Source: a virus (taxonomy: Duplodnaviria > Heunggongvirae > Uroviricota > Caudoviricetes). From it: a stretch of DNA of 11,069 bases. The stretch lies in IMG/VR virus record IMGVR_UViG_2711768070_000020; one strand, given 5' to 3'. The notes beneath the pieces are model-generated. The model had not been told where the DNA came from and did not search any database. It saw only the letters and a program-made list of their open reading frames with translations. Position numbers and translations under genes: made by a program. Shown one piece after another: positions 1 through 11,069 of this stretch. How positions within the stretch are numbered: position 1 is the stretch's first letter; every line of letters begins with the position of its first letter.

Positions 1-144
1 GAAATTATTTGCCGCCTTCTTGAGGTATACCCTGATAAATTAAATGATGGTGATATATCCGCATTAGCTGGCCTTCTGGCAAAACTGTCAGGAAGTGTTG
101 CGCTGTGGTTAATTGATGAGAGAGCCGAACGCTATGAAAAATAA
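1..144 (+). CDS. Possible 3' end of an upstream gene cut by the window edge; product unknown
   Basis: Frame +1 is open from base 1 to TAA at 142-144 (47 sense codons, no stop). It overlaps the ATG at 134 of the next ORF. No recognisable motif. Confidence 0.25.
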   Translation, partial: EIICRLLEVYPDKLNDGDISALAGLLAKLSGSVALWLIDERAERYEK

Positions 145-376
145 TAAACTGGCGACCAGTGAATTAAGAAGCCTTGCCAACAGCGCAATATCTTTAAACA
201 ACGCAGCAAACGAAGTAATGAATATGTGGCTTCAGTCGCTGGTGAATAATGAACGCGATGAATCAACTGCAAGATTAATATTAGCCGTTTCTGAATTACT
301 GGATAGTTCAACCAGCAAAATAGAGAGCATATCAGAGAAGATTAACGGCTTATCAGGTCACGCTATCGGGGAATAA
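134..376 (+). CDS. Small hypothetical protein (81 aa from ATG 134; alternative starts TTG 113 / ATG 116)
   Basis: Six-frame ORF 113..376 with in-frame ATG at 134 (MKNNKLATSEL...). Predicted helical, S/N/L-rich, sits in the AT-richer segment. No family recognised. Confidence 0.45.
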   Translation: MKNNKLATSELRSLANSAISLNNAANEVMNMWLQSLVNNERDESTARLILAVSELLDSSTSKIESISEKINGLSGHAIGE

Positions 377-381
377 AAATA

Positions 382-681
382 ATGAAACTTAAATATCCTG
401 GCTTAACTGACAGCGGCAAAACTCGCACTAAATTCATGCGCGGGGATATTTACCGCGACCAGTACGGCGGCACGGTAATGATTAAGGGCGTGGAGGAACG
501 GCGCGTAACCTACCATCGTGAAGGCTACGAATATGATTGCGTGATGCCTGTTTATCAGTTCCGGCGTGATTTTTCTCTGGTACAGGCAGCGCCCCGCAGT
601 AAACCAACCAGCAGGGAGAAAGCACGCGCCAATATTCAGGAAATAAAAAAGATGCTTAACGTATTCAGGGGTAAAAAATGA
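382..681 (+). CDS. Hypothetical protein (99 aa), translationally coupled to the downstream replication gene
   Basis: ORF 382..681. Its TGA (679-681) overlaps the ATG (678-680) of the next gene in an ATGA arrangement. GGGGA lies upstream of the ATG. No family recognised. Confidence 0.55.
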   Translation: MKLKYPGLTDSGKTRTKFMRGDIYRDQYGGTVMIKGVEERRVTYHREGYEYDCVMPVYQFRRDFSLVQAAPRSKPTSREKARANIQEIKKMLNVFRGKK

Positions 682-2810
682 AACTGGCACCGAACGTAAA
701 AAAACAGCCACGCGGAATAAAACACAAAGACACAGAGGTGATTATTTTCGCGGGTAGTGATGCGTGGGCACATGCAAAACAGTGGCAGGAGCAGGACGGC
801 CCCGCATCCGGCGATAATGTGCCTCCTGTGTGGCTTGGGGAGCAGCAGTTATCAGAACTGGATAAGCTGCAAATTGTGCCGGAAGGCAGAAAATCCGTGC
901 GCATATTCAGGGCCGGACATCTTGCACCAGTAATGATCAAGGCGATTGGTCAAAAGCTGGCGGCGGCTGGTGTACAGGATGCAAATTTTTATCCTGAGGG
1001 TATGCACGGTCAGAAGGTGGAGAACTGGCGCGAATATCTGGCCCGTGAGCGGCAGAATCTTTCTGATGGTCTGGTTATTGAGTTTCCGGTAAAGAAAAAA
1101 GATACCGGAAGCCATAGCGATGACGAATTAAAGCCACGCGTTGAAAGTCGCGCCGATGGTGTTTTCTGGGTAACGCCCAAAGTGGATAAGCAGTCAGGCG
1201 AAATTATCCGGCCTGAGACGTGGTTATGTTCTCCGCTTGAACTACTGGGAACGGGGACGATCGGTAAAGAGCATTACCGCGTGATGCGCTGGAAAAAAAC
1301 CGCAAACCATGAAGTCATCACAATGGCGATCCCGTGTGGTGGTATCGGCGACCGTGACGGCTGGCGGTTACTTAAAGATCACGGGCTGAACGTGACAACC
1401 AACGGCAAATACAGGGCAATCCTGGCGGACTGGATGCAGTTAAGCGGAAGCCATGAGGAATGGCAGTTAAGCACAACAACGGGCTGGCATTTTGGCGCGT
1501 ACATCATGCCGGACGGTTCGATCATTGGTGAATCTGAAAAACCGATCCTGTTTACCGGAAAAAGCGCCGCGATTAACGGTTATTCCGTGGCGGGCACGGC
1601 GGATGGCTGGCGCGACAGCGTGGCGCGGCTGGCTGGCGGTAATGCCTCAATGATACTGGGTGTGGCAACGTCACTGGCAGCGCCTTTAATTGGCCTTGTG
1701 GGTGCTGACGGCTTCGGGGTGCATCTTTTCGAACAGTCATCGGCAGGTAAGACCACCACGCAGAACATCGCATCAAGTTTATGGGGAGAGCCGGACGCGC
1801 AGCGGCTGACCTGGTACGGCACGGCGTTAGGTATTGCCAATGAGGCCGAGGCCCATAATGACGGGCTTTTACCACTGGATGAGATAGGCCAGGCCGGAAA
1901 TGCGCGGGAAGTGTCAACGTCTGCTTATACGCTGTTTAACGGTTCAGGGAAATTGCAGGGGGCGAAGGATGGCGGCAACAGGGAGATCAAACACTGGCGA
2001 ACGGTGGCAATCAGCACCGGAGAAATGGACGTTGAGACATTCCTCAAAAGTGAGGGGATAAAAGTTAAGGCGGGGCAGCTTGTCCGACTGCTTAACGTTC
2101 CGATGGAAAAAGCCACGAAATTTCACGAATACAGCAACGGTAAGGAACATGCTGACGCGTTAAAGGATGCCTGGACAGCAAATCACGGGGCGGCGGGTCG
2201 TGAGTGGGTTAAATGGCTGGCAGGCCACCAGCAGGAGGCAAAGGACACGGTAAGGGAATGCCGCGAACGGTGGCGCAACCTGATACCGGAGAGTTACGGC
2301 GAGCAGGTCCACCGCGTGGGTGAACGTTTCGCCATACTGGAGGCCGCGCTTGTGCTTTCCGGTCATGTAACTGGCTGGGTCGTGCAGGAATGCCGCGACG
2401 CGATACAGCATAACTTTAATGCCTGGGTGAAGGAGTTCGGCACGGGTAACAGGGAATTTAAACAGATGGTTGAACAGGCTGAGGCGTTTTTGTCGTCGTT
2501 TGGGTTTAGCCGCTACCTTCCGTACCCCAATACAGATGAGCGTGATTTACCGATTAAAGAGCTTGCCGGATACAGAAAAGGGAGCATTCGCAACGAAGAT
2601 GACGAGATGCGCTATTACACGTTCCCGCACGTGTTTGAGAGTGAGATAGCGAAGGGATTTAATCCGGCGCATTTTGCGCGTGCCCTGGATGCTGCCGGAA
2701 TGCTGGAGAAGGGAAGCGATCGCCGATACAAAAAAAAGGCGCTGGGCAAGATTGGGGGTAAGCAGCATGTTTTTTACGTGCTGATGTTCCAGCCTGATGA
2801 TGAAGATTAA
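678..2810 (+). CDS. Primase/helicase-type replication initiator (Pri/Rep-like, 710 aa) with a P-loop-like motif
   Basis: Long ORF with AGGGGT 6 nt upstream of the ATG. Contains a P-loop-like motif SAGKTT (nt ~1737-1760). An iteron array follows immediately, which is the characteristic rep-ori arrangement of PICI/satellite replicons. Exact family not verifiable without a search. Confidence 0.7.
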   Translation: MKLAPNVKKQPRGIKHKDTEVIIFAGSDAWAHAKQWQEQDGPASGDNVPPVWLGEQQLSELDKLQIVPEGRKSVRIFRAGHLAPVMIKAIGQKLAAAGVQDANFYPEGMHGQKVENWREYLARERQNLSDGLVIEFPVKKKDTGSHSDDELKPRVESRADGVFWVTPKVDKQSGEIIRPETWLCSPLELLGTGTIGKEHYRVMRWKKTANHEVITMAIPCGGIGDRDGWRLLKDHGLNVTTNGKYRAILADWMQLSGSHEEWQLSTTTGWHFGAYIMPDGSIIGESEKPILFTGKSAAINGYSVAGTADGWRDSVARLAGGNASMILGVATSLAAPLIGLVGADGFGVHLFEQSSAGKTTTQNIASSLWGEPDAQRLTWYGTALGIANEAEAHNDGLLPLDEIGQAGNAREVSTSAYTLFNGSGKLQGAKDGGNREIKHWRTVAISTGEMDVETFLKSEGIKVKAGQLVRLLNVPMEKATKFHEYSNGKEHADALKDAWTANHGAAGREWVKWLAGHQQEAKDTVRECRERWRNLIPESYGEQVHRVGERFAILEAALVLSGHVTGWVVQECRDAIQHNFNAWVKEFGTGNREFKQMVEQAEAFLSSFGFSRYLPYPNTDERDLPIKELAGYRKGSIRNEDDEMRYYTFPHVFESEIAKGFNPAHFARALDAAGMLEKGSDRRYKKKALGKIGGKQHVFYVLMFQPDDED

Positions 2811-2832
2811 TCCCCTGTGTGAGGAAAAAAAT

Positions 2833-3148
2833 TGCGGGTTATGCGGGTTATCCTGTGTATAAGTGTATTAAGTGTATGAATATAAAGGAAATCAATAACC
2901 CGCACGTAACCCGCAAAAGGGCATTTATAACCCGCAAAAGCACGATTATAACCCGCAGGCGAATAACTGAAGTAACACCGGACAGTCATGCGTAACCCGC
3001 AGAAAAAACCCCGTTTGCGGGTTATTTTGAGCGTTTTGCGGGTTACGTGGTGAGCAAATAATAAACAGGGTGTTTTGCAACATGCTGATATAAAAGGGTA
3101 AAAAATGGTTAGCACGCTAAGATAACCCAATAACCCGCATAACCCGCA
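2833..3148. repeat. Iteron array / putative origin of replication: 11 copies of 9-mer TAACCCGCA (both orientations), followed by an AT tract
   Basis: TGCGGGTTA at 2833-2841, 2842-2850, 3016-3024, 3037-3045; TAACCCGCA at 2896-2904, 2907-2915, 2928-2936, 2949-2957, 2993-3001, 3131-3139, 3140-3148; partial TAACCCA at 3123-3129. (TA)n tract tatatatatataaa at ~3156-3170. Non-coding on + strand. Confidence 0.8.
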
Positions 3149-3182
3149 CATGTTTCTATATATATATAAATTGAGGTGGCAA

Positions 3183-3434
3183 ATGACCAGAACACGCAGA
3201 GACAGAACAGAGCCGAAATATAAAGCGTTAGATATAACAGAGCTGGCCTTAAAGGTGGCAATCAGAACGATAGACCGACACGTAGGGGAAGGATACGCGA
3301 AGGAACATCCCGACCTGATAAGCGCATTCATGACCACAGCAGCGGCAAACTTTGCCACGTTGACAGAACGGGAGATTGCCGAAGCGGAACAGGTAACAAC
3401 CATCAACGTTAAAACCGGAGAGTTGAAATCATGA
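3183..3434 (+). CDS. Hypothetical protein (83 aa)
   Basis: ORF 3150..3434 with ATG at 3183 preceded by GAGGTGG (MTRTRRDR...). Stop overlaps the next start (ATGA at 3431-3434). No family recognised. Confidence 0.5.
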   Translation: MTRTRRDRTEPKYKALDITELALKVAIRTIDRHVGEGYAKEHPDLISAFMTTAAANFATLTEREIAEAEQVTTINVKTGELKS

Positions 3435-3736
3435 GCGAACCAAAATTTGGTGAAAAACTTTACAAGCACAACGGACGGATCACGATTCAGCAAATAAGCG
3501 CAGCTACACCAGGCTGGTGGGTTGAAACAGACGAAGGATCCTCACCCGTGGCATCATGGGCGCTTTGTGTGCTTAGTTACCCTGACCGCGATGTGTATCA
3601 GGATATTCTGCCTGTGATATCCACTGACAAAGGCATGAAACCCGTAGACATCAAAAACATGGGTTTTCAGTGCGTAATGCTCACTGAAAAAATGATGGAA
3701 GAGATGAAAAAGAATAACGCCGGATCGCTTCACTGA
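3431..3736 (+). CDS. Hypothetical protein (101 aa)
   Basis: ORF 3431..3736, coupled to the upstream ORF by an ATGA overlap. No family recognised. Confidence 0.5.
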   Translation: MSEPKFGEKLYKHNGRITIQQISAATPGWWVETDEGSSPVASWALCVLSYPDRDVYQDILPVISTDKGMKPVDIKNMGFQCVMLTEKMMEEMKKNNAGSLH

Positions 3737-3745
3737 GGTGGCAAT

Positions 3746-4156
3746 ATGACAGCACAAATTGCAGCTTACGGGCGGCTGGTGGACGACCCGCAGGTAAAAC
3801 AGACCAGCAAGGGTACACCGATGACGCTGGCGCGTATGGCGGTATCGCTGCCATGCAGCCAGGCACAGGATGGACAGGCGACGTTATGGCTATCGGTCAT
3901 CGCATTTGGTAAGCAGGCCGACTTCCTGGCTAAACATCAAAAAGGCGACGTTGCCAGCGTATCCGGCACGATGCAGGTCAGCCAGTGGACCGGACAGAAC
4001 GGGGAAACGCGGCAGGGTTATCAGGTTATTGCAGACAGCGTAATCAGTGCCCGTGCGGCACGTCCTGGTGGGAGCCGACGCAAGACCACAGGCACACAGG
4101 GTAATCAGCCACCAGCGGGAGGCGATGACCCTTACGGTGATGATATTCCGTTCTGA
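3746..4156 (+). CDS. ssb: Single-stranded DNA-binding protein (short SSB, 136 aa) with canonical C-terminal acidic tip ...DDIPF
   Basis: GAGGTGG RBS 6 nt upstream of the ATG. N-terminal OB-fold-like pattern (GRLVDDPQV..., W..VIAFGKQADFLAKHQKGDVASVSGTMQVSQWTGQNGE) parallels bacterial SSB. Gly/Pro/Gln-rich linker and terminal PYGDDIPF match the SSB C-terminal protein-interaction tail. Confidence 0.75.
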   Translation: MTAQIAAYGRLVDDPQVKQTSKGTPMTLARMAVSLPCSQAQDGQATLWLSVIAFGKQADFLAKHQKGDVASVSGTMQVSQWTGQNGETRQGYQVIADSVISARAARPGGSRRKTTGTQGNQPPAGGDDPYGDDIPF

Positions 4157-4168
4157 GGGGTGGGGACG

Positions 4169-4441
4169 ATGGTACATGACCGCATAGCGGAAGAACTGGA
4201 GGCGAAAGGCTTTTACCGGAGAGCGTCGGCGCGATGGGGTGAAGTCATGCAACTGGTGGAGACAGACAAGGAACGGCATCAGGTTACGATGCGACGGCTG
4301 GAATGTTCCAGGAAGGCACAGAGGCCACCGGAGCCGCCGGATAATTACGGAGACCTGAAAAAGGCGGTCGATCGCACTTATGCCGAAATGGGTATGGATG
4401 GTGCTGGTGATGAAATATGGCGAAATTACCAGGACAGATAA
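4169..4441 (+). CDS. Small putative transcriptional regulator, tentatively PerC-like (90 aa; alternative GTG start at 4160)
   Basis: ORF 4160..4441 with ATG at 4169. The N-terminal segment IAEELEAKGFYRRASARWGEVM resembles what I recall of the PerC/Pch family of small activators found on enterobacterial islands. Assignment is from memory only. Confidence 0.4.
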   Translation: MVHDRIAEELEAKGFYRRASARWGEVMQLVETDKERHQVTMRRLECSRKAQRPPEPPDNYGDLKKAVDRTYAEMGMDGAGDEIWRNYQDR

Positions 4442-4447
4442 TCACAC

Positions 4448-4470
4448 AGCCGGAGCAATCCGGCTTTTTG
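4448..4470 (+). terminator. Rho-independent terminator after the small-gene cluster
   Basis: Stem AGCCGGA (4448-4454), loop GCAA, stem TCCGGCT (4459-4465), followed by TTTTT (4465-4469), directly after the stop at 4441. Confidence 0.6.
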
Positions 4471-4590
4471 TCATGTTTTGTAAATTATTTGTTCGTGGTT
4501 GTTCCACGTTGTTCGCTGACCGGATCGGCATATTTTACCCGAACTGAATCATGATTATTCTCGCCCGTGGTGCCAGGACGCTGGGGCCAC

Positions 4591-4638
4591 TTTCCCGCCT
4601 GTTAATGTGCTCGCCAATATTCATTACCAGGCGGGAAA
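4591..4638. promoter_or_regulatory. Perfect 11-bp inverted repeat TTTCCCGCCTG-N26-CAGGCGGGAAA upstream of the capsid operon; candidate operator/activator site or 5' leader structure
   Basis: Left arm 4591-4601 and right arm 4628-4638 are exact reverse complements. Located in the 287-bp intergenic region ~90 bp upstream of the capsid gene start. No U-tract follows, so it is not a typical terminator. Confidence 0.35.
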
Positions 4639-4728
4639 ACGATCGGTGCGATTGCTGATTTCCTTATGAAAAACGGTTGAGTGTTTGCCGCGTCCTGGAG
4701 TTCCTTACTTAACTTCAGGACTTTTTTT

Positions 4729-5886
4729 ATGCCGAGAATAATCGAATTACGCCAGCAGAAAACCGCCATTAAAAATCAGATGCGCGACATGCTGGAGAAC
4801 GCGGAAAAAGAAAACCGCAGCCTTAACGATGCTGAGGGCGCAAAATTTGACGAATTACGCGCTAAAGCTGAATCCCTCGATAAAGACATCTCCCGCCTTG
4901 AGGCCGTTGCTGACGAAGAGCGCAGTAAACCAGGCAAAAACAGCCAGACCACTGACCCCGCCGAACTACGTCACTACATTCTGACAGGTGAAACCCGCGC
5001 ATTGAGTACAGGCGTTCCCGCTGATGGTGGTTATACCGTTATCCCCGAACTGAACACCGAAATCATGCGAATGCTGACGGATGAATCCACCATGCGCCGC
5101 ATCTGTACCGTGAAGAAAATCAGCAGCAACGAGTTTAAGCAGCTTGTTTCCGCTGGCGGTGCGACCGTTAACCACGGTGAAGAGGGTAAGGCACGCGAAC
5201 AGACCAGCACCCCGCAGATTAACGAGGTGAGCATTAAGCTGTATCCGGTCTATGCGTACCCGCGCACCACGCAGGAAATCGTGGATTTTTCCGATGTGGA
5301 CATCCTTTCATGGCTGACGGGCGAGATTGGCGACACCTTCACGGAAACCGAAGAAAGCGATCTGGTTGTGGGCGACGGTGACAAAAAAGCAAAAGGTTTT
5401 TTATCCGTACCCCGTGCAGAGAAGAACGACAAAGAGCGTGATTTTGGTACGTTGCAGGTAATTAAACCTTCCGAATCTCTGGCGTGGACATCTGCGGACC
5501 CGCTGATCGACCTGAAATTTGCATTACGTAAAAAATACCGCAAAAACGCGGTTTGGGTGGTTAACTCCACGACGGCGGCAAAACTCCAGAAGGTGAAGAA
5601 CGCGAACGGTGATTACATCTGGCGCGACCGTTTACAGGCGGGTGATCCTGATACGTTGCTGGGCCTTCCGGTCGAATATCTGGAGTTTATGCCTGATAAC
5701 GTTATTGCCCTGGGTGACTTCAAACGCGGTTACTACATTGTTGATCACGAAACAGGTGTTCGCACCAGACCGGACAACCTCACAGAGCCGGGCTTTATCA
5801 AAATTTTCACGCAGAAATATTTAGGCGGTGGCGTGGTGGATTCGAACGCTATAAAGATTCTGGAACTGCCGCAGGACGACGATTAA
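4729..5886 (+). CDS. HK97-family major capsid protein with N-terminal coiled-coil delta (scaffold-like) domain (385 aa from ATG 4729; ORF opens at GTG 4681)
   Basis: AGGA ~9 nt upstream of ATG 4729. The charged helical N-terminus (ELRQQKTAIKNQMRDMLENAEKENRSLNDAEGAKFDELRAKAESLDKDISRLEAV) followed by a ~280-aa body is typical of HK97-type MCPs that carry their own scaffold domain. Genomic context with protease and portal supports the call. Confidence 0.85.
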   Translation: MPRIIELRQQKTAIKNQMRDMLENAEKENRSLNDAEGAKFDELRAKAESLDKDISRLEAVADEERSKPGKNSQTTDPAELRHYILTGETRALSTGVPADGGYTVIPELNTEIMRMLTDESTMRRICTVKKISSNEFKQLVSAGGATVNHGEEGKAREQTSTPQINEVSIKLYPVYAYPRTTQEIVDFSDVDILSWLTGEIGDTFTETEESDLVVGDGDKKAKGFLSVPRAEKNDKERDFGTLQVIKPSESLAWTSADPLIDLKFALRKKYRKNAVWVVNSTTAAKLQKVKNANGDYIWRDRLQAGDPDTLLGLPVEYLEFMPDNVIALGDFKRGYYIVDHETGVRTRPDNLTEPGFIKIFTQKYLGGGVVDSNAIKILELPQDDD

Positions 5887-6499: not shown

Positions 6500-7711
6500 A
6501 TGTGGCCTTTCAGAAGAAAAAAAGAGCAGCGCAGCATGACGCTTGATGAGTTTATGGCGCTGGCTGGCACATCGAACACGGGGGCGGGTGAGTACGTATC
6601 ATCGGGGACAGCGGAATCACTGCCCGCCGTCATGAACGCCGTCACGGTCATCTCTGAGGCGGTGGCTACCATGCCGTGTTACCTGTACCTGGTACGCAAT
6701 GAGAAGGGGAAGGAGGCCCGAGAGTGGCTTGATTCTCATCCGGTCGATCACATCCTCAACGAGCGCCCGAACGCATGGCAAACCCCCTACCAGTTTAAGC
6801 GAATGATGATCCGCCACTGCCTGTTAAACGGTAATGCTTATGCGGTGATTCGGTGGGGGCGTGATGGTTTTCCGGTGGCTTTACATCCTTACCCGCCGCA
6901 GTCGGTGAACGTGGAGCAGACAGGTGAGCATAACTGGCGCTACTGCATCACTGACGCCTACACCGGAAACACCCGCAACTATTTACCGTGGGAGGTTCTC
7001 CACCTTCGTTACTCCACGGATGACGGTTTTATGGGGCGCTCACCTGTAACCATCTGCCGCGAATCGCTGGGGCTTGGGCTGGCCCAACAACGCCACGGCG
7101 CGAGCGTGATGCGTGATGGCATGATGGCGGCAGGGGTTATCACGTCAGGCGAGTGGCTGGACGGCGTGAAGGGTAAACAGGCATTAGCCGCACTGGAACG
7201 CTACAAAGGGGCCAGAAACGCCGGAAAAACGCCCATCCTTGAAGGGGGTATGAGCTATCAGCAGCTGGGCATGAGTAATCAGGATGCTGAATGGCTGGCC
7301 TCCCGTCGCTTCACCATTGAAGACATCGCCCGAATGTTCAACGTCTCGCCGATTTTTTTGCAGGAATACAGCAACAGCACCTACAGCAATTTCAGCGAGG
7401 CAAGCCGCGCATTTCTCACCATGACGATGCGCCCGTGGCTGGCGAACTTTGAGCAGCAGATAAAAAACGCCCTGCTGGTGGCCTCGCCTGTACCTGGTAT
7501 CCGGTATCAGGTGGAGTTTGACAGCGCGGACCTGTTACGGGCCACACCTGGCGAACGCTTTGCCACCTATGAACGCGGCATCAAATCCGGCGTTATGTGC
7601 CCGAACGAAGCCCGCGAACGTGAAGGGCTGTCCCCGCGTGATGGTGGTGATGAGTTCAGCCAGGCATGGAAACAGGAAGTAAAAATCAGCGAGGGAGAAA
7701 AACCGGAATGA
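6500..7711 (+). CDS. HK97-family portal protein (403 aa; possible alternative start at ATG 6536)
   Basis: ~400-aa ORF starting 2 nt after the protease stop. Size, position and pattern (NAVTVISEAVATMP..., NGNAYAVIRW, RMFNVSPIFLQEYSNSTYSNF) fit phage portal proteins. Confidence 0.8.
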   Translation: MWPFRRKKEQRSMTLDEFMALAGTSNTGAGEYVSSGTAESLPAVMNAVTVISEAVATMPCYLYLVRNEKGKEAREWLDSHPVDHILNERPNAWQTPYQFKRMMIRHCLLNGNAYAVIRWGRDGFPVALHPYPPQSVNVEQTGEHNWRYCITDAYTGNTRNYLPWEVLHLRYSTDDGFMGRSPVTICRESLGLGLAQQRHGASVMRDGMMAAGVITSGEWLDGVKGKQALAALERYKGARNAGKTPILEGGMSYQQLGMSNQDAEWLASRRFTIEDIARMFNVSPIFLQEYSNSTYSNFSEASRAFLTMTMRPWLANFEQQIKNALLVASPVPGIRYQVEFDSADLLRATPGERFATYERGIKSGVMCPNEAREREGLSPRDGGDEFSQAWKQEVKISEGEKPE

Positions 7712-8046: not shown

Positions 8047-8339
8047 CAGAAGAACTTATCACCCTGGAAGAAGTGAAACTCCATTGCCGCATCGATGGCG
8101 ACGAGGAAGACCAGTTAATCAGCGGATACATCGCCGCATCGCTTGAGGCGTGCCAGATACACATAGGCAGGCGCTTTGATGACGGGCTGGAGTTCACGCC
8201 AGCCATAAAGATTGGCTGCATGATGTTTATCGCTCACCTGTATGAAAATCGCCAGATTGTCGCGGATAACGCAAAAACACGCGTACCCATGACGATTGGT
8301 GCACTCTGGACGGCTTACCGTGATGTGGGGGTGTACTGA
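8043..8339 (+). CDS. Head-tail connector protein (gp6-like, 98 aa)
   Basis: ATGA overlap with the upstream gene. The N-terminus ITLEEVKLHCRIDGDEEDQLISGYIAASLEA matches the typical gp6-like connector pattern. Confidence 0.75.
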   Translation: MTEELITLEEVKLHCRIDGDEEDQLISGYIAASLEACQIHIGRRFDDGLEFTPAIKIGCMMFIAHLYENRQIVADNAKTRVPMTIGALWTAYRDVGVY

Positions 8340-8779
8340 TGCCGTGGCAACCATTAAGACGATGCACAGAACCAGGCTGTAACAGGCGCGTGGAGTCCGG
8401 CAAGTGTGAGGAGCACAGGCGGGCGGCATGGCGTGCAGAGGATGCCAGACGAGGACACCGCCGCGCGCGTGGGTACTCCAGACAGTGGGACAAATACCGC
8501 GCCATGTATCTGAGTAAAAACCCGTTATGCGTGCGATGCCTTGAGAAGGGGATATATACGCCCGCCGTGGTGGTGGATCACATTATCCCGATTAATGGCG
8601 GTGATGATGTTCTCTTCTGGCCCGAATGGAACCATCAGCCATTGTGCCAGGCGTGCCATAACCAGAAAACGAAATGGCTTGATCCGGCAACAAAAAGCAA
8701 GCGTGCCGCAGGTGGATTTCGTGAAGAGGAAGAACGGGCCGCTAACCGCAATAACTGGATGTATGACGCTGATGAATGA
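8339..8779 (+). CDS. Phage-associated HNH endonuclease (146 aa), packaging-associated
   Basis: Start overlaps the connector stop by 1 nt. Cys-rich with an HNH core (CVRCLEKG...VVDHIIPINGGDD...NHQPLCQACHNQKT). Located immediately upstream of terS/terL, as in HK97-like cos packaging modules. Confidence 0.85.
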   Translation: MPWQPLRRCTEPGCNRRVESGKCEEHRRAAWRAEDARRGHRRARGYSRQWDKYRAMYLSKNPLCVRCLEKGIYTPAVVVDHIIPINGGDDVLFWPEWNHQPLCQACHNQKTKWLDPATKSKRAAGGFREEEERAANRNNWMYDADE

Positions 8780-8945
8780 GCGGGAACAAAACCGCCTTAT
8801 CCGTGGACTTATAAGGCAGCGTGACGCATGGAAGACACAGGAAACAGGGCATAAAGATAAAGCGTCAGGACGCGCAGAACGCATCACAGCGAAGCGATTA
8901 ACCGACCGTGACTGCGAGGTTATGGAATGTTTCCGCAATCGCTGA
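8763..8945 (+). CDS. Possible small basic protein (60 aa) overlapping the 3' end of the HNH gene
   Basis: Downstream part of six-frame ORF 8541..8945, taken from ATG 8763 (alternative ATG 8772). Fills the space between HNH and the putative cos region. No RBS or family support; could be non-coding. Confidence 0.25.
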   Translation: MTLMNEREQNRLIRGLIRQRDAWKTQETGHKDKASGRAERITAKRLTDRDCEVMECFRNR

Positions 8946-9067
8946 TGAGGCTGTATGACGGGGTGGGGGGCGTTTTCAGGACAAACCCGCCCCCGCCGGG
9001 CACCGAACGCCTCCTCAAATTTTTATGCACGGGAATTTTTTGAAAAATAATCTGACGAAAAATAAAC
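8946..9067. other. Putative cos/packaging-initiation region: GC-rich dyad followed by an AT-rich tract upstream of terS
   Basis: G-run ACGGGGTGGGGGGCG (~8958-8972) and C-run CCCGCCCCCGCCGGG (8986-9000) contain a 7-bp dyad GGGGGCG/CGCCCCC (8966-8972 / 8988-8994). This is followed by A/T-rich AAATTTTTATGCACGGGAATTTTTTGAAAAATAATCTGACGAAAAATAAACA. Lies between HNH and terS, where cos sites are found in HNH-terminase systems. Confidence 0.45.
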
Positions 9068-9424
9068 ATGGCAAGACCACCGAAAGCCCCCGCCTACCTT
9101 GATGACATCGCCGTAAAGCAGTGGCGGGAAAAATCGCGCCAGCTTGCGGAACGGGGAGACCTCACCCCCGCCGACTGGAGTAATCTCGAACTGTATTGCG
9201 TCAACTACTCGATATACAGGAAAGCCGTCGCAGACCTTGCGGCACGCGGGTTCAGCATTGTTAACAGTCAGGGCGGAGAGAGCAGAAACCCCGCATTAAG
9301 CGCGAAATCCGACGCTGAAAGAGTGATGATAAAAATGGCCTCCTTGCTTGGTTTTGACCCGATAAGCCGCCGTAAAAATCCACCGGAAACAGAAGAAGAG
9401 GACGAGCTTGACCACCTGGAATAA
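9068..9424 (+). CDS. terS: Terminase small subunit, P27 family (118 aa)
   Basis: MARPPKAPAYLDD...W...LAERGDLTPADWSNLELYCVNYSIYRKA...SAKSDAERVMIKMASLLGFDPISRRK follows the characteristic P27-family TerS pattern. Directly upstream of terL. Confidence 0.85.
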   Translation: MARPPKAPAYLDDIAVKQWREKSRQLAERGDLTPADWSNLELYCVNYSIYRKAVADLAARGFSIVNSQGGESRNPALSAKSDAERVMIKMASLLGFDPISRRKNPPETEEEDELDHLE

Positions 9425-11069
9425 GTACGCAGAAGACGTAAAAACGGGCAAAATTCCGGCCTGTAAACGGTTAAAACAGGCCGTTAAACGGTACTTTTCG
9501 GACCTTAAAAGTCCCCTTTACACGTTCGATAGTGAGGTTGTGGAGCGGTTTATTGCCTTTTCAAGGGTGTGCCCGCACGTAAAAGGGCCGTTGCGTGGCA
9601 GACCCATTGAGCTGGAGCCGTGGCAGCAGTTCGCCTTTGCGTGCATCCTGGGTTTTAAGGTTAAGGCCACCGGACGGCGCAAATACTCGAGCGCTTTTAT
9701 CGAAGTACCGCGAAAAAATGCGAAATCCACGACCGCCGCGATTCTGGCTGACTGGTTTCTGATTATGGAGAACGGGCAGCAGGATATTTACACCGCAGCG
9801 GTGAGCCGTGACCAGGCACGGATCGTGTTTGATGATGCGCGTCAGATGTGCCTTTTATCCCGACCGTTACGCAGGCGGGTGAATATTCAGGCCCACAAGG
9901 TGATACACCCGAAAACCAACAGCCTGTTAAAGCCGCTGGCAGCAAAAGCGGCAACCATCGAGGGGACAAACCCGAGTCTTGCCATTGTGGACGAATATCA
10001 CCTGCACCCCGATAACGGCGTTTATTCCGCGCTTGAGCTGGGGATGGGTGCACGTCCCGAAGGGCTGTTATTTGCCATTACCACATCGGGAAGTAACGTC
10101 GTTTCAGCCTGTAAGCAGCACTATGATTATTGCTGCCAGATCCTGGACGGCGAAGAGGTCAACGAATCGCTTTTTGTGCTGATTTACGAGCTGGACGATG
10201 AAAACGAGGTTGACGATCCGGCGATGTGGATAAAGGCGAATCCCAATATCGATGTTTCCGTTGATCGTGAAAAACTGGCCTCAACCATCCAGAAAGCGCG
10301 GGGTATTCCGTCGCAGTGGGTGGAGATGATGACAAAGCGGTTTAACATCTGGTGCCAGGGGGCCACCCCGTGGATGGGTAACGGGGCGTGGGCTGAGTGT
10401 GCCGGAACGTTCACAGAGGAAGATTTACACGGCCAGGAATGTTACGCGGGGCTTGATTTGTCATCCACAAGCGACATTTCCAGCGTGTGCTATGCCTTTC
10501 CGGTCGGCAAAAAAATTATGCTGCTTTCCCGTCACTATCTGCCGGAATTTCAGCTACAGAACCCCGCCAACAAGAACCGGGCCATTTATCGCCAGTGGGC
10601 TAAATCGGGCTGGTTGCGGATAACGCCGGGCGACTGCATTGATTACGACCGGATCCGCGATGACATCATGGAGGACGCGGAAAAATTTGATATCAGGCTG
10701 GTGGGCTTTGATACGTGGAACGCCACGCATCTCAGGACGCAATTACAGGGGGCAGGGTTTGAGGTTGAGCCGTTCCCGCAAACCTATCTGAGATTCAGTC
10801 CGGCGGCGAAATCGTTCGAAGTTTTTGTTAACCGCAGGGTGATAGTCCATCGTGATGATCCGGTGTTGTCGTGGTCGATGAGTAACGTCGTGATGCAGAG
10901 TGACGCGAACGCCAATATCAAGCCAAACAAGAAAAAATCACCGAACAAGATAGACCCGAGCGTGGCGGCACTGATGGCGTTTGGCACATTCCAGGCAGAG
11001 CATGAAGATTTTGCTTTTGATATAAGCGACAGCCACCGCGAAAAACTGGAAGAATTTAACGGGGTGTGA
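9408..11069 (+). CDS. terL: Terminase large subunit (Terminase_1/HK97-like, 553 aa); apparent TTG start overlapping terS by 17 nt
   Basis: Walker A-like PRKNAKSTTAA, Walker B-like IVDEYH, and a C-terminal nuclease-like region. N-terminus TTWNKYAEDVKTGKIPACKRLKQAVKRYFSDL is typical of TerL. First in-frame start is TTG at 9408 with GAGGAC 5 nt upstream. Stop TGA at 11067-11069 is the last triplet of the window. Confidence 0.9.
   Translation: MTTWNKYAEDVKTGKIPACKRLKQAVKRYFSDLKSPLYTFDSEVVERFIAFSRVCPHVKGPLRGRPIELEPWQQFAFACILGFKVKATGRRKYSSAFIEVPRKNAKSTTAAILADWFLIMENGQQDIYTAAVSRDQARIVFDDARQMCLLSRPLRRRVNIQAHKVIHPKTNSLLKPLAAKAATIEGTNPSLAIVDEYHLHPDNGVYSALELGMGARPEGLLFAITTSGSNVVSACKQHYDYCCQILDGEEVNESLFVLIYELDDENEVDDPAMWIKANPNIDVSVDREKLASTIQKARGIPSQWVEMMTKRFNIWCQGATPWMGNGAWAECAGTFTEEDLHGQECYAGLDLSSTSDISSVCYAFPVGKKIMLLSRHYLPEFQLQNPANKNRAIYRQWAKSGWLRITPGDCIDYDRIRDDIMEDAEKFDIRLVGFDTWNATHLRTQLQGAGFEVEPFPQTYLRFSPAAKSFEVFVNRRVIVHRDDPVLSWSMSNVVMQSDANANIKPNKKKSPNKIDPSVAALMAFGTFQAEHEDFAFDISDSHREKLEEFNGV

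Follow-up and report, generated by a model that had tools for sequence, protein, structure and literature searches.

Between origin and ssb in a capsid-forming satellite island of Escherichia coli: a backbone gene at a module boundary and an optional insert

The 11,069-nucleotide (nt) stretch of viral DNA analysed here (IMG/VR record IMGVR_UViG_2711768070_000020; the window) represents a capsid-forming phage-inducible chromosomal island (PICI) of Escherichia coli, a recombinant close to the island EcCIEDL933. Two small open reading frames (ORFs), ORF1 and ORF2, occupy the interval between the replication origin of this island and the gene (ssb) for its single-stranded DNA-binding protein (SSB), with the following features:

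3173-3179, + strand: ribosome-binding site (RBS) of ORF1, GAGGTGG, 3 nt upstream of the start
3183-3434, + strand: ORF1, 83 amino acids (aa; residues 1-14 at 3183-3224), phrog_1231, WP_024165893.1; ATG at 3183, TGA at 3432-3434; a RefSeq coding sequence (CDS) in a 100% identical genome
3417-3422, + strand: RBS of ORF2, GGAGAG, inside the 3' end of ORF1 and 8 nt upstream of the start
3431-3434, + strand: ATGA, the ORF2 start over the ORF1 stop (translational coupling), read from the sequence
3431-3736, + strand: ORF2, 101 aa, phrog_27268, WP_001294169.1; ATG at 3431, TGA at 3734-3736; a RefSeq CDS in a 100% identical genome

A sequence-only reading of this DNA had described ORFs of 83 and 101 aa with an RBS and an ATGA overlap, and the coordinates, both RBSs, the RefSeq CDSs, the substitution ratios and the PHROG matches agree with it: both are real genes of unknown function without a recognisable domain. 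ORF1 matches phrog_1231 over residues 1-82 (E 2.9e-51) and ORF2 matches phrog_27268 over residues 1-101 (E 1.3e-69), each a PHROG of unknown function. ORF1 is under purifying selection, with a ratio of nonsynonymous to synonymous divergence (dN/dS) of 0.27-0.46 against diverged homologues (synonymous divergence, dS, 0.23-0.47), as is ORF2, with a dN/dS of 0.27 against a 67%-identical relative (dS 0.83). A longer, 94-aa reading of ORF1 from the ATG at 3150 was rejected; it lacks an RBS, and the extension is not conserved among homologues. The absence of recognisable motifs reported from the letters alone also held: neither ORF has a match in Pfam, NCBIfam or PADLOC at E <= 1, and single-sequence and profile searches of PDB sequences returned nothing real for either. 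PADLOC-DB 2.0 gave no match for ORF1, ORF2, the neighbouring proteins tested or 12 members of the ORF2 family. Neither ORF matches PF00436 or SSB structures with their OB-fold, and only the gene at 3746-4156 matches SSB. There is no tblastn match to either ORF in 50,697 phage genome records (E <= 0.01), and both families are satellite-restricted. No paper was found that names or characterises ORF1, ORF2 or their PHROGs, and they are not characterised in the papers on capsid-forming PICIs, on EcCICFT073, on EcCIMP1 and on helper-embedded PICIs.

ORF1 is a 9.3-kDa protein in two parts: a variable, basic N-terminal tail (residues 1-14; isoelectric point, pI, 10.9) and an acidic helical core that hardly varies (residues 15-80; pI 5.0). 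Its predicted model is an amphipathic helical hairpin with helices of 23 and about 20 residues, for which the fold search gave no informative match; Pfam and fold searches revealed no helix-turn-helix (HTH), ribbon-helix-helix or other nucleic-acid-binding signature. ORF2 has a mass of 11.4 kDa and belongs to an acidic, Trp-rich family that occurs in a short form (pI 5.6), as in the window, and a long form (pI 4.45). The family carries the motif GWW...SPxAxWAxC...LP...G.xP and has 14 invariant positions that persist down to 26% identity (distant relatives, 26-35%). The predicted ORF2 model, built from a shallow alignment, is unreliable (pLDDT 37) and was kept out of the fold search; with low confidence, it suggests six short strands and a C-terminal helix. 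A match of the ORF2 profile to TAL effectors in PDB (E 1e-17 to 1e-19) is an artefact, being a sum over many repeats of which no stretch passes alone. All of these scores come from one 21-residue motif (..ILPVL....G..P; YQxILPVLxxxxGMxP) at profile positions 47-67, about residues 54-74 of ORF2, which resembles the end of the 34-residue TAL-effector repeat. Both are small cytoplasmic proteins, a membrane location having been rejected; the maximum Kyte-Doolittle value in a 19-residue window is 0.86, and neither has a spanning segment.

ORF1 is a backbone gene and a module boundary of E. coli PICIs, as conserved as ssb. ORF1 DNA is present in 1617 of 5426 complete E. coli genomes (~30%), in up to six copies per genome, and island-type ssb in 1784 of the same genomes. 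In 80 of the 355 IMG/VR loci found, the gene order, as far as the contig carries the genes, is replicase, ORF1, (ORF2), ssb, perC and capsid. The replicases are of three types (AAA_25/RepA helicase in 49 loci, D5-type primase in 23 and DUF927 in five), each with a characteristic origin length. The 76 loci with enough sequence to identify the gene after ORF1 have ssb in that place in 61 cases, ORF2 in 12 and perC in three, and a 4-nt overlap at the ORF1 stop is found at 61/62 ssb junctions and 11/12 ORF2 junctions; with ssb or ORF2 as the next gene, 72 of 73 loci keep it. The ORF1 family comprises 166 clusters at 90% identity, with named sources in Escherichia/Shigella and one record labelled Citrobacter; E. 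albertii relatives are among the matches listed in the profile search for distant relatives (the best 120 of 291). When ORF1 was compared with a plasmid collection, five records matched, two of them chromosome-sized (1.4 and 4.9 Mb), and all five are predicted to be non-mobilizable.

A helper-embedded PICI has an ORF1 of 58% identity, likewise coupled to ssb and located behind a D5-type primase. In this sequence (Logan ERR2532961, positions 1579-3221 and 8909-9949), the PICI with the ORF1-ssb pair lies inside a lambda-type major capsid gene E, an integration that fits the published helper-embedded PICI configuration (PMC10111431). Across the 80 IMG/VR loci, the N-terminal tail of ORF1 tends to follow the replicase type: MTRTRRDRTEP accompanies DUF927, SLKKRRDRTEP or MTKIRRDRTEP the D5-type, and MTQKRRDRTEP or MNRKTRDKTAP the AAA_25 type. 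This tracking could reflect function or mere linkage to the adjoining cassette.

The boundary role of ORF1 is evident from where homology between islands begins and ends. Relative to capsid-forming PICIs with an unrelated AAA_25 replicase, homology to the window starts at 3181, the start of ORF1, and runs 6.5 kb rightwards at 97.7% identity. On the left, window positions 367-1051 are homologous to elements with unrelated replicases, and this homology ends ~370 nt (~125 codons) into the replicase gene. Because AAA_25, D5-type and DUF927 elements share the DUF4222 gene and the first ~370 nt of the replicase gene, the replicases apparently combine one shared N-terminal domain (phrog_2850) with helicase or primase bodies that are unrelated. 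From these two limits (window 367-1051 and 3176-3181) it follows that replicase and origin form a swappable cassette, and that ORF1 is the first gene of a common right arm. The presence of ORF1 with three unrelated replicase/origin cassettes argues that it does not act via a particular replicase or iteron. A second breakpoint lies at the other end of ORF1. Identity between the window and EcCIEDL933 is 99.8% over positions 1-3434, up to the last base of ORF1, 93.9% over ssb-perC and 96.1% over the packaging module; ORF1 has zero synonymous differences from EDL933, whereas dS for ssb is 0.16. Because identity drops after 3434, the window's island is a recombinant with a breakpoint at the ORF1/ORF2 junction.

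ORF2 is an optional insert at that junction. It corresponds to a precise 315-nt indel at the ssb start codon, between ORF1 and ssb. In ORF2-less islands the conserved 3' end of ORF1, ...CCGGAGAGGTGGAATCATGA, leads into ssb (ATGACA), whereas in the window a junction variant, ...CCGGAGAGTTGAAATCATGA, leads into ORF2 (ATGAGC), and the 3' end of ORF2, CACTGAGGTGGCAATATGACA, restores an RBS and start for ssb. The junction at the ORF1 end reads ACGTTAAAACCGGAGAGGTGGAATCATGA in most loci and GGAGAGTTGAAATC in the window. From the sequence, the two imperfect 13-15-nt RBS-ATGA repeats are a plausible substrate for gain and loss of the ORF2 cassette. The short form of ORF2 is present in 82/5426 complete E. 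coli genomes and follows ORF1 wherever upstream sequence exists. ORF1 and ORF2 do not behave as a linked pair, as seen from 1617 genomes against 82 and from ORF2-family genes that occur without ORF1 in other genera.

In at least five genera and with three types of replicase, the ORF2 family retains its slot after the origin. It forms eight clusters at 90% identity, and an exhaustive HMMER scan of 1.84 billion proteins yielded only seven representative clusters, confirming that the family is small. The long form (~100-122 aa; hhalign 100% against the family profile), of which relatives match phrog_27268 at E 5e-12 and 1e-10, is found in 28 further E. coli genomes, where it lies between the origin and ORF1(-ssb) in AAA_25-type PICIs. 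The long form also occurs in Providencia, Photorhabdus, Xenorhabdus and Morganella, where it directly follows a DUF927 primase-helicase across a gap of 320-470 bp; a ProQ/FinO gene follows it in two of these four loci, and all four lack ORF1. Further long-form loci have a D5-type or DUF927 replicase, with ssb and/or ProQ and perC after the ORF2-family gene or, in one case, the capsid gene directly. Altogether, five loci from other genera carry ORF2-family genes without ORF1. An exclusive link between ORF2 and HK97-type capsids, suggested by one sample (12/23 vs. 0/40), was discarded when two CapE loci were found to carry ORF2. In many satellites a ProQ/FinO RNA-chaperone gene stands between the small genes after the origin and perC, in many cases with an overlap to the ORF2-family gene; no such gene is present in the island of the window.

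The assignment of the window to the capsid-forming PICIs is based on the RefSeq annotation of an identical locus, on Pfam and PHROG matches and on 94-99.8% identity to EcCIEDL933. The 1651 bp around ORF1 and ORF2 are 100% identical to three E. coli chromosomes, including that of strain 10671, whose island is annotated in RefSeq with an integrase, an HTH regulator, an Icd-like protein, DUF4222, a DUF927 replicase, ssb and PerC, followed by packaging genes for an HK97 capsid, protease, portal, head closure and connector proteins, an HNH endonuclease, and the small (TerS) and large (TerL) terminase subunits. There are no tail genes in this annotation. The element thus has the hallmarks of a capsid-forming PICI: a size of ~15 kb, an integrase, a small HTH regulator at the AlpA position, its own replicase and origin, and an HK97-type packaging set, without tail or lysis genes. 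EcCIEDL933 (E. coli O157:H7 EDL933; 'prophage Sp7' of strain Sakai), the prototype capsid-forming PICI (bioRxiv 10.1101/2022.09.08.507074), has the same gene order as the window. It differs in lacking ORF2, so that its ORF1 overlaps ssb directly, and in being integrated between roxA and phoQ, unlike the window's element, which is integrated between rcnR and thiM. As far as the published text at hand goes, the mutational analysis of EcCIEDL933 dealt with the packaging module and not with ORF1 (bioRxiv 10.1101/2022.09.08.507074). The two islands show a further indel in the spacer between perC and the capsid gene (window 4441-4729), which is 288 bp here and 642 bp in EDL933 (locus coordinates 10323-10965), where it contains a 225-nt hypothetical gene and a 'trigger factor' pseudogene fragment. 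In the window's packaging module, the HNH endonuclease gene (8339-8779) lies directly upstream of the TerS and TerL genes, with a 183-nt hypothetical gene (8763-8945) between, a layout that is usual for HK97-like cos packaging modules.

Around ORF1 and ORF2, the replication block of the window contains the following features:

382-681, + strand: DUF4222 gene (Pfam PF13973, E 2e-23); its stop overlaps the replicase start (ATGA), and it marks the left end of the exchangeable replicase/origin cassette
678-2810, + strand: island replicase, a DUF927 primase-helicase of 710 aa (Pfam DUF927, E 1e-48; phrog_1139, DNA primase, E 8e-191)
2833-3148, no strand: replication origin with 11 exact TAACCCGCA iterons in both orientations (11 vs. 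0.13 expected)
3155-3172, no strand: AT-rich tract TCTATATATATATAAATT between the last iteron and the ORF1 RBS, with palindromic AT repeats; role proposed from sequence
3735-3741, + strand: RBS of ssb, GAGGTGG, overlapping the ORF2 stop codon; right-hand one of the two short junction repeats around the ORF2 insert
3746-4156, + strand: island ssb (Pfam SSB PF00436, E 4e-17; TIGR00621 above cut-off); C-terminus ...DDIPF
4169-4441, + strand: PerC-family regulator, last gene of the block (Pfam PerC, E 1e-43; RefSeq start at 4169)
4448-4465, + strand: terminator-like hairpin with a T run, closing the replicase-ORF1-ORF2-ssb-perC unit

The location of the two ORFs between ori and ssb, proposed from the letters alone, is borne out by the iterons, as all 11 copies of the 9-mer fall inside 2833-3148, and by the SSB match at 3746-4156. 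The AT-rich tract at 3155-3172 is a probable DNA-unwinding element. The heptamer GAGGTGG is identical before ORF1 and before ssb, and stops and starts overlap or abut throughout the block. A consensus scan found no sigma-70-like promoter within 2700-4800; because of this, the terminator after perC and the tight packing, we infer that DUF4222, replicase, origin, ORF1, ORF2, ssb and perC form one early transcription unit. For perC, RefSeq takes the ATG at 4169 as the start and not an upstream GTG at 4160. In earlier work, cited in the EcCIMP1 paper, the PerC-like proteins of EcCIEDL933 and EcCICFT073 were without effect on LEE1 expression. An antisense ORF of 228 aa (2807-3493, minus strand) across the iteron origin and part of ORF1 is not annotated in RefSeq and most likely arises artefactually from the many repeats of the origin. 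Scans of the window against Rfam and for tRNA genes came back empty.

A possible reading, which we tentatively prefer while regarding it as short of probable, is that ORF1 and ORF2 are accessory proteins acting with SSB or single-stranded DNA (ssDNA) during island replication. Upon island induction, both would be made in fixed proportion with the island SSB, and both would be non-enzymatic components on the ssDNA/SSB side of replication, not tied to one origin or replicase. In this picture ORF1 would serve as a small, helical and probably oligomeric adaptor: its invariant acidic core would bind a conserved partner, which could be island or host SSB or another host replication or recombination protein, and contacts with nucleic acid may be made by the variable basic tail. 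An optional modulator of the same step would then be seen in ORF2. The sequence-only reading had set its own expectation of cargo against routine replication accessory proteins; position and linkage place both ORFs with the latter, and homology does not. Several observations weigh against a replication role. No homology or fold match in Pfam, NCBIfam, PDB or fold searches ties ORF1 or ORF2 to replication, and the link to replication comes only from gene position and coupling, a pattern to which the inheritance of adjacent genes gives rise as well. Most PICIs lack ORF2-family genes, which therefore cannot be essential for replication. ORF1 occurs without island ssb in 3/76 IMG/VR loci and in RM9131, and frameshifted alleles exist of both ORF1 and ORF2. 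In the island of NZ_CP027550.1, a frameshifted ORF1 occupies the usual position after the origin (locus coordinates 6761-6984), and an intact, 50%-identical paralogue lies ~3.5 kb downstream (locus coordinates 10487-10738), in the late region, far from origin and ssb. This paralogue overlaps the end of a 220-aa protein without a family match, and an ORF with a weak small-terminase PHROG match (E 7e-4) is found ~370 bp beyond it. Finally, being small, confined to satellites and free of enzymatic domains is also typical of inhibitors aimed at phage or host, and the region after pri is a documented immune hot spot in other PICIs (PMC11364771).

These last points lead to the main rival, rather unlikely in our judgement, by which ORF1 and/or ORF2 are small stoichiometric inhibitors of a conserved phage or host protein, serving interference with helpers or competitors or host take-over. 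Possible targets include a RecBCD-like nuclease, an enzyme of recombination or repair, and a phage protein of replication or packaging, and the acidic ORF2 could be a DNA mimic. There are precedents in Ppi and Pti of staphylococcal pathogenicity islands and in PICI Rpp. Both families are found in satellites alone and are missing from phage genomes, and both proteins are small, soluble, without an enzymatic domain and acidic (the ORF1 core and both forms of ORF2). An invariant ORF1 core that is independent of the replicase fits a conserved external target, and the presence/absence polymorphism of ORF2 and the immune genes downstream of pri in Pectobacterium PICIs point the same way. The published lambda-interference screen of the post-origin genes of the classical E. 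coli PICI EcCICFT073 began at c1499, with a reverse cloning primer named 'Capsid' (PMC6739421), and therefore the ORF1 homologue, ssb and perC of that island were outside it. Against interference, deletion of rppA alone brought lambda plaque titres nearly back to the island-free level (PMC6739421), so that ORF1 does not detectably block lambda in EcCICFT073. A strict origin-adjacent position with coupling to ssb or ProQ across genera is also unusual for normally variable cargo. A defence role, which had been raised as speculative from the sequence, finds no support in the empty PADLOC searches, in the comparison with RppA of EcCICFT073, the interference protein known from E. coli PICIs (hhalign probability 0.1-0.2% for ORF1/ORF2), or in the comparison with the Tai (tail assembly inhibition) anti-phage genes, from which ORF1 and ORF2 differ in size and distribution. 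The broader expectation that this position in satellites commonly carries cargo stands in part: Tai genes lie downstream of pri in Pectobacterium PICIs, and ORF2 is polymorphic, but ORF1 is backbone and the ORF2 slot is conserved, so neither behaves as exchangeable cargo. Because the content of the slot is conserved, whereas defence hot spots hold many unrelated systems, ORF1 and ORF2 are not typical cargo.

It is improbable that ORF1 is instead a small DNA- or RNA-binding or anti-termination factor that, with PerC, times the packaging operon or controls copy number, resembling P4 Cnr in role and not in sequence. ORF1 does share an operon with a PerC-family gene, just upstream of it and ahead of the packaging module; its helical hairpin is amphipathic and bears a basic tail, coupling of ORF2-family genes to genes for ProQ/FinO RNA chaperones is frequent, and the late-region paralogue of NZ_CP027550.1 lies upstream of the weak small-terminase match. 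However, Pfam and fold searches gave no nucleic-acid-binding signature, hhalign against P4 Cnr gives a probability of 0.1% for both families, and the ORF1 helices are too long for a classical HTH. Quite improbable, too, is a scenario in which ORF1 is conserved mainly as a recombination boundary for swapping cassettes and right arms, its protein having little function and ORF2 being a neutral hitch-hiker. The breakpoints fall exactly at the ORF1 start (3181) and the ORF1/ORF2 junction (3434), most loci have one conserved junction sequence, and frameshifted copies exist; but the dN/dS and dS values and the nearly invariant core show selection on the ORF1 protein itself, the 50%-identical paralogue retains the same core motifs, and in the ORF2 family, which has a dN/dS of 0.27, 14 residues stay invariant at 26% identity. 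Two small overlapping ORFs on a mobile element also have the layout, and nothing else, of a toxin-antitoxin or abortive-infection pair, which we consider extremely improbable. Neither ORF requires the other, as seen from the unequal genome counts, from EDL933 with ORF1 alone and from the five loci with the ORF2 family without ORF1, and therefore they do not form a toxin-antitoxin or other two-gene system; no toxin or antitoxin domain was found for them in Pfam, NCBIfam or PADLOC at E <= 1.

In a more far-reaching version, to which we give little probability, ORF1 and the ORF2 family would represent two kinds of modulator of ssDNA metabolism that are specific to satellites and have so far gone unrecognised. 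By engaging the conserved interactome of the SSB C-terminal tail, or a RecBCD-like nuclease, ORF1 would act as an adaptor or inhibitor that protects and prioritises replicating island DNA, and the acidic, Trp-rich ORF2 family would inhibit a host or helper DNA enzyme in the manner of a DNA mimic. If this were true, it would be a widespread, unstudied layer of conflict among satellite, host and helper, because ORF1 is present in ~30% of E. coli genomes.

PICIs, including capsid-forming PICIs, are major gene-transfer vehicles in Enterobacteria, and their replication modules are treated as understood, consisting of replicase, origin and sometimes ssb. The kind of element was already known, and both ORFs were catalogued as hypothetical proteins and function-less PHROGs. 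New here are ORF1 as a backbone gene and module boundary, and ORF2 as a precise optional insert from a position-conserved, multi-genus family; together they are a well-defined experimental target rather than a surprise. ORF1 is at once common in complete E. coli genomes, independent of the replicase and a marker of the exchange boundary of replicase/origin cassettes. The binding partners of ORF1 and ORF2 would tell satellite-own factors for host replication from a new interference function. The expectation of anti-phage cargo is tempered, as these are backbone or semi-backbone genes and not a defence island.

Small proteins of ~100 aa beside DUF927 (Cch) helicases are familiar from staphylococcal SCCmec, where they include the ssDNA-binding LP1413 and SAUGI, the latter a uracil-glycosylase inhibitor and small DNA mimic. 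Like these, ORF1 and ORF2 are small and are encoded on a chromosomal island next to a helicase of the DUF927 family; the acidic ORF2 family looks beta-rich in the low-confidence model. The ORF2 sequence differs from them in having no similarity to any PDB chain or Pfam family, and its unreliable model precluded a fold comparison. P4 Cnr (ORF106, DUF5375), a small copy-number regulator beside the satellite primase-helicase alpha, may be analogous in role; the cnr gene precedes alpha, whereas ORF1 and ORF2 follow the origin. The Tai genes, described from an accessory region 'downstream of the pri gene' of Pectobacterium PICIs, had at their discovery no match in PADLOC or DefenseFinder; they are mainly phage-encoded (e.g., in phi80), and tagged TaiEcA runs at 26.1 kDa (PMC11364771). 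They resemble ORF1 and ORF2 in general island location, just after a replication gene. They differ in being phage-borne and ~26 kDa, against 9.3 and 11.4 kDa for proteins absent from 50,697 phage genomes, and in that the ORF1/ORF2 slot has conserved and not variable content; identity with Tai was thus rejected by size and phage distribution, that is, without sequence alignment to Tai. The closest parallel in a classical PICI is EcCICFT073 (PMC6739421). Unlike the window's island, it has a D5-type primase, a lambda-type capsid gene and the packaging-redirection protein Rpp, and it lacks ORF2; its ORF1 homologue, 80% identical over the core, is likewise the first gene after the origin and overlaps ssb, which is followed by perC.

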